Shown here piece after piece: positions 16,869-19,002 of a stretch of 64,000 nt of DNA. Source of the DNA: Escherichia coli. GTDB lineage: Bacteria; Pseudomonadota; Gammaproteobacteria; Enterobacterales; Enterobacteriaceae. The stretch lies in the NCBI RefSeq assembly GCF_003790525.1, contig NZ_CP033635.1; one strand, written 5' to 3'. Made by a program: the position numbers and the translations under genes. The notes under the pieces were generated by a model, which did not search any database, had not been told where the DNA came from, and was given only the letters and a program-made list of their open reading frames with translations. Within the stretch, counting starts at the first letter, position 1, and every line of letters starts with the position of its first letter.

Positions 16869-17324
16869 TTATTCAACACCTGAATCCCCCGCCGCTTCTC
16901 TCCCCTTTATAAAACGCCCCTTCCGGAATCCAGACCGCTGCAGTGCACGACGAAGATGACCGTATACCGTCTTGTCATTCTGCCCCGTCTCTTCTGTAAT
17001 CTCCGCAATACTTAAACCTCTGTAATACCGGTTCAGTACCGCTCTGCGCTCTTCCAGCGTCAACACACCTCCGGCCGCTCTCAGATTCAGCATCGACTTA
17101 TTCAGAATACAGCAGGCCTCTCCGGTAAAAAGAATACGAACAATATCTGTATACTCATCATCACAGAATACAAAATAATATCTGAATGACCTGCCTGACT
17201 GCACCCTTCTTCTGTCTGATATGGCATCTTCTATATATCTGATTCGACTGCTTACGGTTCCAAATATCTCTCGCAGGGCTTTTTCAAAATAAATATCTCT
17301 CGTCGCCAGGATTATATCCAGCAT
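16869..17324 (-). CDS. putative LuxR/sigma-70 region 4-type HTH regulator (prophage moron)
   Basis: 151-aa; C-terminal LTLEERRAVLNRYYRGLSIAEITEETGQNDKTVYGHLRRALQ resembles a LuxR/GerE-type HTH. Confidence 0.45.
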   Translation of the reverse strand: MLDIILATRDIYFEKALREIFGTVSSRIRYIEDAISDRRRVQSGRSFRYYFVFCDDEYTDIVRILFTGEACCILNKSMLNLRAAGGVLTLEERRAVLNRYYRGLSIAEITEETGQNDKTVYGHLRRALQRSGFRKGRFIKGREAAGDSGVE

Positions 17325-17385
17325 CTCTGTACCTCATTATATCCCGGGGGACTCCCCCCGGGACAGATATCTAAATCCTGACCTG

Positions 17386-19002
17386 TCAGAACTCAAAATT
17401 CACACCAGCATTCCACGATGCGGATGACCCACCTGCAGCAACTGCAACTTTTCCTGCCACATTCTCTGTGAAACGGTAGCCCACGCCCACCGCAATGGCC
17501 TGCTCATCACGGTAACCACCAACGGCTGCTGTCGCGTTAAATTTTCCAACACTGTATGGCTGGAAAAGACCTGCCAGTGCCGCGCTCTGGGCTGCACTCT
17601 CCCTTAACTCCTTCCGGTTCTCTTTAATCTGCTCCTGCATATTATTCATTCTCTCTGTCGCCATCTTCTGCCAGGCTTCCGTCAAATCCAGACGATGACT
17701 GTTATTCCTTATCGCTGCTGTATTTGAGGCTATTGCTGCATCCGTCTGCGCCCTGTTCTTCACAAGCACATCGCTGAGATGTTCTGCCTGGCTTTTCGCT
17801 TCTTTAAGGGCATCTCTGTATACACCGCCTATCTCACCACGCAGACTGTCTCCCTCTGCCTTCAGTTCATCACGTACTGCTGTGACCTGACTGTCAGTAT
17901 GAGCACGGGCATCTCTGTATACACCGCCTATCTCACCACGCAGACTGTCTCCCTCTGCCTTCAGTTCATCACGTACTGCTGTGACCTGACTGTCAGTATG
18001 AGCACGGGCATCTCTGTATACACCGCCTATCTCACCACGCAGACTGTCTCCCTCTGCCTTCAGTTCATCACGTACTGCTGTGACCTGACTGTCAGTATGA
18101 GCACGGGCATCTCTGTATACACCACCTATCTCACCACGCAGACTGTCTCCCTCTGCCTTCAGTTCATCACGTACTGCTGTGACCTGACTGTCAGTATGAG
18201 CACGGGCATCTCTGTATACACCACCTATCTCACCACGCAGACTGTCTCCCTCTGCCTTCAGTTCATCACGTACTGCTGTGACCTGACTGTCAGTATGAGC
18301 ACGGGCATCTCTGTATACACCACCTATCTCACCACGCAGACTGTCTCCCTGTGATTTCACTTCAACCCCAAGGTTGCGGGTACGATTATCAAGCTCCACG
18401 ACGAATTCTTTAACAGGGATTGTCTGAGCATTTCCGTCAGCCCTTCCGTCAGCAGTGATTCGGCCTGATGAATCCAGAACAAAATTCTGGCCTTCAACTA
18501 CATTTTTATACAATGATGACAATCCCGATGTTTTATTACTAATTTTAATAAAATCCTCAGCGGTACCACCAGCATTAACAGCGGCGATATAATCATCCTT
18601 GTTTTCTGGTGTGATTATTTTTTCTAGTGATTTTTTTGTATCAACAATGGACTTTATATCTTCTGCTTTTATATTTCTGATGTTTTCGGCTTTTAATGCA
18701 TCTGAGTAGATGGGGTAAGTTAGCAAATCCTGAGCAACAATATGCCTAGTATTCGCAGGAGCTGCTAATATAGCACTCGTAATAGAGGGATTCGGTTTAA
18801 TAGACCCTGTATTAACGCCAATATTAGTATTAATTTGATGAATTTCATCACCTTTTGACATTATTGCTATACCATTATCATACAGAGTAATATTATATTC
18901 ATCTACATTAAAACTCTCTTCTGCCATAACCCCCACAGAGCAACATAACAGCGCACTGGTAACCGCCATTGCCAATACATTCTTTGCCATTATAAATTTC
19001 AT
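17386..19002 (-). CDS. prophage-encoded trimeric autotransporter adhesin (YadA-like C-terminal anchor; Eib-like), with 33-aa coiled-coil tandem repeats
   Basis: Signal peptide [27 protein letters not shown]; six repeats [34 protein letters not shown]-terminus [64 protein letters not shown] typical of the YadA membrane anchor. Confidence 0.7.
17810..18350. repeat. 99-bp perfect/near-perfect tandem repeat, about 5.5 copies, inside the adhesin gene
   Basis: Unit boundaries at 17810, 17909, 18008, 18107, 18206, 18305; copies 1-3 differ from 4-6 by a single base (acaccGcc vs acaccAcc). Confidence 0.95.

Follow-up and report, generated by a model that had tools for sequence, protein, structure and literature searches.

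Is the adhesin gene at the end of an Escherichia coli prophage an allele of eib, and is the small gene behind it the regulator of that adhesin? These questions are raised by two neighbouring genes in a 64,000-nucleotide stretch of chromosome (contig NZ_CP033635.1 of assembly GCF_003790525.1, here called the window). The first gene, at 17386-19002 on the minus strand, encodes 538 amino acids, and the second, at 16869-17324 on the same strand, encodes 151. The initial annotation described the larger product as an exported YadA-type adhesin, placed like the prophage-borne Eib immunoglobulin-binding proteins, and the smaller as a LuxR-like protein that might control it. Both open reading frames (ORFs) are unbroken at these positions. 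Taken as a whole, the locus is probably a lysogenic-conversion cassette of the Eib type, carrying a mosaic trimeric autotransporter adhesin together with a helix-turn-helix (HTH) partner.

An Eib-type cassette

By its sequence the 538-residue protein is a trimeric autotransporter of the type Vc, YadA/Oca family, and is predicted to form a homotrimer. The Pfam profile YadA_anchor (PF03895) matches residues 480-538 across model positions 1-60 of 60 (i-E 3.7e-16), the solved anchor structure of Yersinia YadA (PDB 2lme) matches at E=1.9e-17, and the chain ends in ...WNAGVNFEF. This beta-barrel anchor, with the stop codon, occupies 17386-17565 (-). The signal peptide claimed at the other end (residues 1-27; 18922-19002, minus strand) also looks typical on inspection, with a basic n-region (MKFIMAK), a hydrophobic core and VMA followed by EES. 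An identical protein is already present in the non-redundant protein database (nr) as a 'YadA-like family protein' (P0002), so the adhesin ORF is not a sequencing artefact. The anchor is shared with YadA, but a Pfam scan of the 538 residues found no YadA head, neck or stalk domain; the gene also differs from yadA in being carried by a prophage rather than a virulence plasmid, and in its neighbours.

Those neighbours make the comparison with Eib stronger than had been claimed. The GenBank records of the ECOR-9 prophages P-EibC and P-EibD (AF151674 and AF151675) annotate, in order, ORF-191, a stem_loop, eib, a second stem_loop, ORF-156 and ORF-60. Sequence comparison gives all four genes and both hairpins counterparts in the window, the counterpart of ORF-60 being a probable one. 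The first gene of the cassette (19402-19977, minus strand) encodes 191 amino acids that are 60% identical to ORF-191D of P-EibD (E=1e-89) and match phrog_1141, 'tail fiber protein', at 1.4e-62; a 98%-identical 191-residue gene in another locus, L001, is annotated DUF4376 by the NCBI annotation pipeline PGAP. This tail-fibre-associated gene had been labelled tfa, with the adhesin directly after it. The adhesin gene does lie downstream of the tail-fibre genes at the prophage end, but the 191-residue product is of the ORF-191/DUF4376/phrog_1141 type rather than a demonstrated lambda Tfa.

Between this gene and the adhesin gene lies a GC-rich hairpin, CCCCTCTGA-8-TCAGAGGGG (19363-19388), with a T-run after the stem on the plus strand only; P-EibC and P-EibD have a 'stem_loop' annotated in the equivalent region. 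The second hairpin, TCCCGGGGG-4-CCCCCGGGA (17342-17363), is in the 61 bp that separate the adhesin gene from the partner gene on the same strand. A 'stem_loop' with a T-run is annotated at the same place in P-EibC and P-EibD, whereas the one here, a GC hairpin, has no U-tract.

The series of tail fibre, ORF-191/DUF4376, hairpin, trimeric autotransporter, hairpin, ORF-156-type gene and ORF-60-type peptide gene is thus shared with P-EibC, P-EibD and the eibG locus of the Shiga toxin-producing E. coli (STEC) strain JNEC-KY208, as is the placement at the end of a lambdoid prophage. Phage GER2 and an EibA-like locus have this gene order too, as does one genomic island that lacks the tail genes. The cassette in the window differs from the Eib cassettes in having no eaa gene or gene for a serine protease autotransporter (SPATE) after it. 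When a phage collection was searched with the DNA of the locus there was no match; the protein search recovered the ECOR-9 records P-EibC, P-EibD and P-EibE, plus GER2. Cassettes of this type have been described since 2000, and the proteins encoded here already stand in databases under generic names.

A mosaic adhesin

The N-terminal domain of the mature adhesin (residues ~28-172; 18487-18921, minus strand) is not a YadA-like head. It is related to the N-terminus of the adhesin of phage GER2 (MG710528, AVD99023), with 29% identity over 251 columns (E=3e-11), and both adhesins are assigned to phrog_9547. The GER2 protein, encoded on a sequenced phage genome and followed there by homologues of ORF-156 and ORF-60, resembles ours in its N-terminal domain, in a connector of the form '...VVxLDNRTR' and in its Eib-type anchor. 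It differs in being 354 residues long, in having no 33-residue repeats and in having a partner of the canonical ORF-156 type. Allelic variation in the N-terminal domain is concentrated in the first ~60 mature residues, and the N-terminal part of the gene has a G+C content of 37% against 51-53% across the remainder. In a large protein search close relatives of the domain came from E. coli alone, and they are present in only 6 of 5426 complete E. coli genomes.

The next segment (residues ~173-218; 18349-18486, minus strand) is a putative connector, assigned from alignments, that resembles either the saddle or the neck of Eib proteins. The GER2 version, '...VVSLDNRTR', aligns with the EibA/EibD saddle 'VNDGLVALSGRTDR', while MAFFT places the segment on the Eib neck instead. 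As the AlphaFold2 model of the adhesin is poor (predicted local distance difference test, pLDDT, of 44.7), we do not choose between saddle and neck.

Behind the connector is the repeat stalk (residues 219-398; 17809-18348, minus strand). Tandem Repeats Finder reports a 99-bp unit in 5.6 copies, 98% identical, at 17808-18364. The initial annotation counted six repeats of 33 residues. The repeats are real, but as assembled there are five complete ones, identical in amino acid sequence (residues 219-383), and a partial sixth of 15 residues. The DNA copies differ by a single synonymous T/C. As 99 is 3 x 33, a change in repeat number stays in frame, and database alleles do differ in length by steps of 33 residues, with 0-6 repeat starts; the window is at the maximum. 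Hydrophobic residues recur in the repeats with a period of 3.67, and by sequence the 33-residue unit is hendecad-like, 3 x 11. The AlphaFold2 model runs a continuous helix through the array.

The stalk that follows (residues 399-479; 17566-17808, minus strand) is a heptad-type coiled coil, with a periodicity of 3.54 over residues 399-478, and is Eib-like from about residue 421. YadA and EibD likewise have a non-heptad stalk followed by a heptad stalk. The order here, non-heptad, then heptad, then barrel, is that of YadA. Mosaic passengers that vary in their repeats are typical of trimeric autotransporters. A length module is one possible role for the array. Its 99-bp units are almost identical, and unequal recombination between them would alter copy number in frame. 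With a rise of 0.15 nm per helical residue, every 33-residue unit would lengthen the stalk by about 5 nm, and the number of units would set the distance of the tip from the cell surface.

The partner protein and a small peptide

The 151-residue partner is directly downstream of the adhesin, on the same strand, in all loci examined, as are the other members of its family. The initial annotation gave it a LuxR-type HTH. An HTH is present (residues 87-130; 16935-17066) and the gene is tightly linked to the adhesin, but as a single sequence the protein matches Sigma70_r4_2 in Pfam (4e-7, residues 87-130), with no match to GerE or Response_reg. The LuxR connection appears at the level of the family: a profile of eight members matches the GerE structure 1fse at 4.9e-6, two of the eight match PF00196, PGAP calls one member a 'LuxR family transcriptional regulator', and one has a weak match to BglJ (1.7e-4). 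Matches to NCBIfam sigma models were all far below cut-off and covered the C-terminal 50 residues only. Sigma region 2 was not found in the protein, which has a region-4-like segment at residues 87-130 only, and therefore it cannot be a sigma factor.

The similarity to the known cassette genes is low. BLASTP aligns residues 2-142 of the partner with residues 1-156 of the EibG-locus partner, and aligns it over its full length with ORF-156D, at 22-23% identity. Residues 3-75 match phrog_6585 (E=3.3e-4), the family to which ORF-156D itself belongs (4e-99), and an alignment of the eight family members has 22 invariant columns. The partner here also differs from ORF-156 in that its top score is to sigma-70 region 4 and not to GerE. 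We regard it as a distant, divergent homologue of ORF-156, an assignment that is weak by similarity alone and stronger with synteny.

The structural model of the partner has a beta-alpha-beta-alpha-beta-alpha-beta N-terminal domain of four strands, followed by a three-helix HTH. Its best Foldseek matches are full-length FixJ, StyR, DesR and RcsB, followed by region 4 of extracytoplasmic function (ECF) sigma factors. Asp55 is invariant and stands at the end of the third strand, while Thr8-Arg9 occupy the positions after strand 1 where the acidic pocket would be. A complete receiver domain, with acidic pocket and phospho-acceptor Asp, was not found, the receiver-like part being only about 80 residues long (1-~80). 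We therefore read the model as a truncated pseudo-receiver fused to an HTH of the LuxR/sigma-4 class. The predicted C-terminal three-helix HTH is like that of the NarL/FixJ regulators that work without phosphorylation (BglJ, RcsA, MatA) and of ECF sigma region 4, and the predicted beta-alpha N-terminus, whose third strand ends in an invariant Asp, is like that of NarL/FixJ proteins; the length of ~80 residues, the four strands and the Thr-Arg in place of the acidic pocket are not.

The ORF-156 and ORF-60 homologues have ratios of nonsynonymous to synonymous substitution (dN/dS) of ~0.17-0.25 (ORF-60 ~0.23), so they are real genes, constrained by purifying selection. An exhaustive HMMER search of 1.84 billion representative proteins with the partner returned fragments of the same protein and weak matches to the HTH only; a pattern scan found nothing in the GTDB species representatives and one locus in IMG/VR. 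These protein and genome searches thus detected no homologues outside this E. coli accessory family. A literature search whose reach did not extend to the original papers of Sandt and Hill (2000, 2002) found no mention of ORF-156, and a 2026 survey of genes neighbouring trimeric autotransporters mentions neither ORF-156 nor ORF-60.

Downstream of the partner there is an unannotated ORF of 31 codons, MKITKAAFIFALSVWSVAVICLLLFVLVVLG (16662-16757, minus strand), whose product would have a basic N-terminus and then one hydrophobic helix. It falls within a conserved block (16650-17814) and is 100% conserved in loci L001 and L012, where PGAP does not annotate it. The peptide aligns locally with ORF-60 homologues at scores of 40-42, against 23.5 +/- 4.9 for shuffled sequences, 0.4-0.8% of which reach the score. 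It has no match in PHROG, where ORF-60 is phrog_9340. It also differs from ORF-60 in length and position: ORF-60 directly adjoins ORF-156, and the 31-codon ORF lies ~110 bp beyond the stop codon of the partner gene. The peptide is a possible divergent counterpart of ORF-60.

Distribution and modularity

The partner gene is present in 183 of 5426 complete E. coli genomes, at 288 places, and the anchor with the C-terminal stalk in 183 of 5426, at 285 places; all copies are at least 99% identical, and in the records that both samples list the two genes lie side by side. The canonical EibC/D cassette, in contrast, is complete in only 29 complete E. coli genomes.

In most genomes the same stalk, anchor and partner go with another N-terminus, which starts MLKRRDAF... 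and has a YadA-like beta-roll head plus a neck where the window has the GER2-type domain. These 'YadA-like family proteins' (P0054 and P0037, for example; some are named 'immunoglobulin-binding protein') have the 33-residue repeats, the C-terminal stalk and the anchor, and in the sampled locus L012 the sigma-like partner downstream is at least 99% identical; their upstream regions differ. They are much the commoner form, the N-terminal type in the window being found in 6 genomes against 183 for the module. The sequence shared with L012 (NZ_CP097170.1, 3001-6010) is the block at 16650-17814, at 99.6% identity, followed by the repeats. L012 keeps the adhesin-partner pair together in a region rich in insertion sequences (IS) and without tail genes. 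It also retains ~230 bp of homology to the ORF-191 gene at its 3' end, with the hairpin, which points to a decayed prophage end.

Genomes with the module seem enriched for poultry origins: in a spread sample of 40 rows, 22 isolates were from poultry and 11 from humans, as raw counts without a baseline. The poultry, chicken or avian pathogenic E. coli (APEC) sources include APEC IMT5155 and O78 strains, and there are up to 6 copies of the module per genome. In STEC, loci L007 (NZ_CP027586.1, 954-6203) and L008 (NZ_CP027312.1) have a related trimeric autotransporter and an ORF-156-type gene outside a tail-fibre context, with a 68-residue ORF between them. Next to this pair are a 'phosphoadenosine phosphosulfate reductase' gene and one for a calcium-binding protein of very large size. 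The annotation of the former is reminiscent of IbrA, an activator of eib genes.

How the cassette may work

We propose that the adhesin would be exported by Sec and that, as in the family generally, three chains would contribute their C-terminal strands to one outer-membrane barrel, through which the passengers would pass before zipping into a coiled-coil fibre. From the membrane outward the fibre would be a mosaic of Eib-like heptad stalk, five and a half 33-residue repeats, connector and distal GER2-type N-terminal domain. Its function would most likely be adhesion, autoaggregation or chain formation. The partner is most likely on the same transcript, read through the hairpin that lacks a U-tract, and most likely a DNA-binding regulator coupled to adhesin expression, whose target may be the adhesin promoter or other host genes. 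A gene for a small membrane peptide of the ORF-60 type probably completes the cassette.

The adhesin's own promoter is presumed to be in the 360 bp between the first hairpin and the adhesin start (19003-19362, minus strand), which are AT-rich (~38% G+C). This region contains a perfect inverted repeat, GTATTGATT-5-AATCAATAC (19093-19115), ~90-110 bp upstream of the start codon. We considered it as the partner's operator and rejected it: the repeat is confined to type-1 loci, which have the same type of N-terminal domain, and is absent from type-2 loci that carry an identical partner. The earlier suggestion that the partner controls the adhesin found no supporting evidence here. When the upstream regions of six loci were aligned they had no motif in common, apart from the ribosome-binding region, which is similar to those of eibG and the EibA-like gene. 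At a similar distance upstream of eibD and eibG stands an AT-rich inverted repeat of another sequence, TAAATTTATAAA-5-TTTTTAAATTTA. A TATAAT in the spacer between adhesin and partner was considered as a promoter for the partner and set aside, with no -35 element on inspection and no room for a ribosome-binding site.

Several of these results weigh against reading the locus as an Eib-type cassette with a regulatory partner. The homology of the partner to ORF-156 depends on two pairwise E values, 6e-5 (EibG-locus partner) and 2e-4 (ORF-156D), plus synteny. Its fold matches are weak (E 1e-3 to 1e-2, TM score ~0.3) and come from a model of low confidence (pLDDT 59.5), and the model that includes the adhesin's N-terminal domain was too poor for a fold search. 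The 31-residue peptide has its position and a modest shuffle test behind it, and no more. Promoter-like matches upstream of the adhesin are no commoner than in shuffled sequence, and no operator was found, the one candidate being missing from loci with the identical partner. Lastly, eibG, claA and claB have been expressed from a plasmid with only the 168-bp upstream region of eibG (bioRxiv 10.64898/2025.12.25.695649). Expression thus does not strictly need a partner linked in cis, unless the host strain had kept a copy of its own, which it may have done.

If the partner is a regulator, its target could lie on either side of the cassette boundary. PapX and MrpJ, encoded at the 3' ends of fimbrial operons, repress flagella, and MatA is likewise a precedent. 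The partner may be a passenger regulator of this sort, not the adhesin's regulator at all, re-programming host genes while the adhesin is being made by, for example, repressing flagella; this is possible, though we would not favour it. The arrangement suits the idea, with the adhesin first and the regulator last on one strand, 61 bp apart, and the intervening hairpin lacking a U-tract. So do the lack of an operator common to promoters with an identical regulator and the expression of Eib-type genes without a cis-linked partner. The partner is, however, unrelated in sequence to PapX (MarR family) and to MrpJ (XRE family) and has no known target site, and its strict linkage to the adhesin would fit autoregulation equally well.

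The opposite idea, to which we give the same tentative standing, is that the partner is dedicated to the adhesin promoter, activating it or relieving its silencing, perhaps together with RcsB, as the LuxR-type auxiliaries BglJ and MatA do at AT-rich promoters silenced by H-NS. The AT-richness of the adhesin upstream region is consistent with this, as are the predicted fold of the FixJ/RcsB class, the family members that resemble BglJ or bear a LuxR name, and the strict co-occurrence of partner and adhesin, all of it indirect evidence. Against it stand the missing conserved binding site in the upstream regions and the activators already credited to eib: Sandt and colleagues are said to have shown in 2002 that these are IbrA and IbrB. 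Autoregulation or anti-silencing on the one hand, and cross-regulation of host genes on the other, seem to us about equally likely.

Immunoglobulin binding

Within the Eib-type cassette proposed here, the adhesin could still be a genuine new eib allele, with non-immune binding of IgG and IgA Fc and serum resistance. We think this improbable. It shares the cassette and its position with eibC, eibD and eibG, its C-terminal stalk and anchor are Eib-like, and 'immunoglobulin-binding protein' is the database name of some relatives that have this stalk. These names are inherited, however, and only over its last ~113-118 residues is the adhesin 58-59% identical to EibG, the EibA-like protein and the GER2 adhesin, with similarity to EibG and the EibA-like protein starting only at residue 421. 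Of the EibD passenger structures, 2xqh gave no match even at E<=10 and 2xzr gave E=0.16, and in profile-profile comparison (hhalign) the N-terminal domain was unrelated to those of Eib proteins (probability 0.1). By sequence, then, the adhesin is not an Eib and its passenger is unrelated to Eib passengers: it has no left-handed beta-roll head and no Eib N-terminal domain, and has the 33-residue repeat stalk inserted.

The Fc segment is missing as well. In EibG the Asp in the motif ...SGRTDRID[Y/A]AVG... is needed, as D391A abolishes Fc binding (bioRxiv 10.64898/2025.12.25.695649). In alignment the adhesin lacks this motif, having another segment there and then directly the repeats. As this segment is absent, binding of IgG Fc through the known site, which had been proposed by analogy, is not expected. 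Close kinship with Eib does not in any case imply it, since the Eib relatives ClaA and ClaB give chain-like adherence without IgG binding (bioRxiv 10.64898/2025.12.25.695649).

It is very unlikely that the adhesin is instead a tail-associated component of the virion. In favour of this, its gene directly follows the tail-fibre genes on the same strand, it has weaker PHROG matches to the 'tail/adhesin' families phrog_17426 and phrog_26246, and relatives in some lytic Salmonella phages carry the annotation of tail proteins. On the other side, the adhesin combines a Sec signal peptide with a YadA outer-membrane barrel that is complete, is separated from the tail genes by hairpins and an AT-rich region, belongs to a module that survives in an IS-rich remnant without tail genes, and comes from the same cassette as the Eib and EibG proteins, which are cell-surface proteins.

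The prophage setting

The window is E. coli chromosome, running through aspS (13235-15007) and yecD (15302-15883) into the lambdoid prophage. The cassette sits at the attR-proximal end of the prophage, which occupies the yecD/yecE site, and has yecD beside it. Among complete genomes TUM1886 is the closest (98.2% identity); it has the same arrangement, bounded by yecD and a truncated ORF that is taken to be a remnant of yecE. An integrase gene and cmoB were found in the far part of the window.

Convergent with the cassette is a dinI-like gene (16238-16486, plus strand; NF007893, 7e-20). Between the two is a hairpin, AGGCGTGTT-9-AACACGCCT (16554-16580), with a T-rich tail on the plus strand, which probably terminates both transcription units. 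On the other side of the cassette, at the right end of the prophage, are a collagen-like tail-fibre gene (19992-21662, minus strand) and a gpJ homologue (21721-25626, minus strand). In the tail-fibre gene 45-bp tandem repeats (20267-20414 and 20705-21197) encode long Gly-X-Y tracts like those of collagen, and the protein fits the prophage collagen-like proteins described for pathogenic E. coli (PMC3368898). The gpJ homologue is long, at 1301 amino acids, and has an internal near-duplicate segment, coiled-coil-like and of ~55-60 residues, in two copies (VAKKSGEQS[L/M]AIA[K/E]VDRKVD...[V/I]RQYVDDK). A scan of 15900-20000 with Rfam found no RNA family, and PADLOC found no relationship to defence systems, only coiled-coil noise.

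Implications

Trimeric autotransporters of the prophage Eib group contribute to serum resistance, chain-like adherence and, in STEC without a locus of enterocyte effacement (LEE), lethality in a mouse model (bioRxiv 10.64898/2025.12.25.695649). The module of stalk, anchor and partner described here is carried by 3.4% of complete E. coli genomes. One and the same cassette carries exchangeable passengers, its stalk and anchor bearing either the GER2-type N-terminal domain or YadA-like heads.

What we expected least is to find ORF-156 and ORF-60, annotated only as ORFs in 2000, to be conserved, selected partners of these adhesins. A more speculative idea, slightly less likely than either regulatory scheme above, is that the ORF-156-type HTH protein and the ORF-60-type membrane peptide form an unrecognised, dedicated accessory module that travels with every Eib-type adhesin. 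The HTH protein would be a pseudo-receiver switch of the LuxR class, coupling display of the adhesin to host behaviour or counter-silencing its AT-rich promoter, and the peptide, in the inner membrane, would assist or sense export of the adhesin. If this is true, the partner resembling sigma region 4 would represent a second subfamily, about six times commoner than the canonical EibC/D version (183 against 29 complete E. coli genomes). ORF-156 and ORF-60 are the best lead from this locus, as candidate regulators or helpers of the adhesin.

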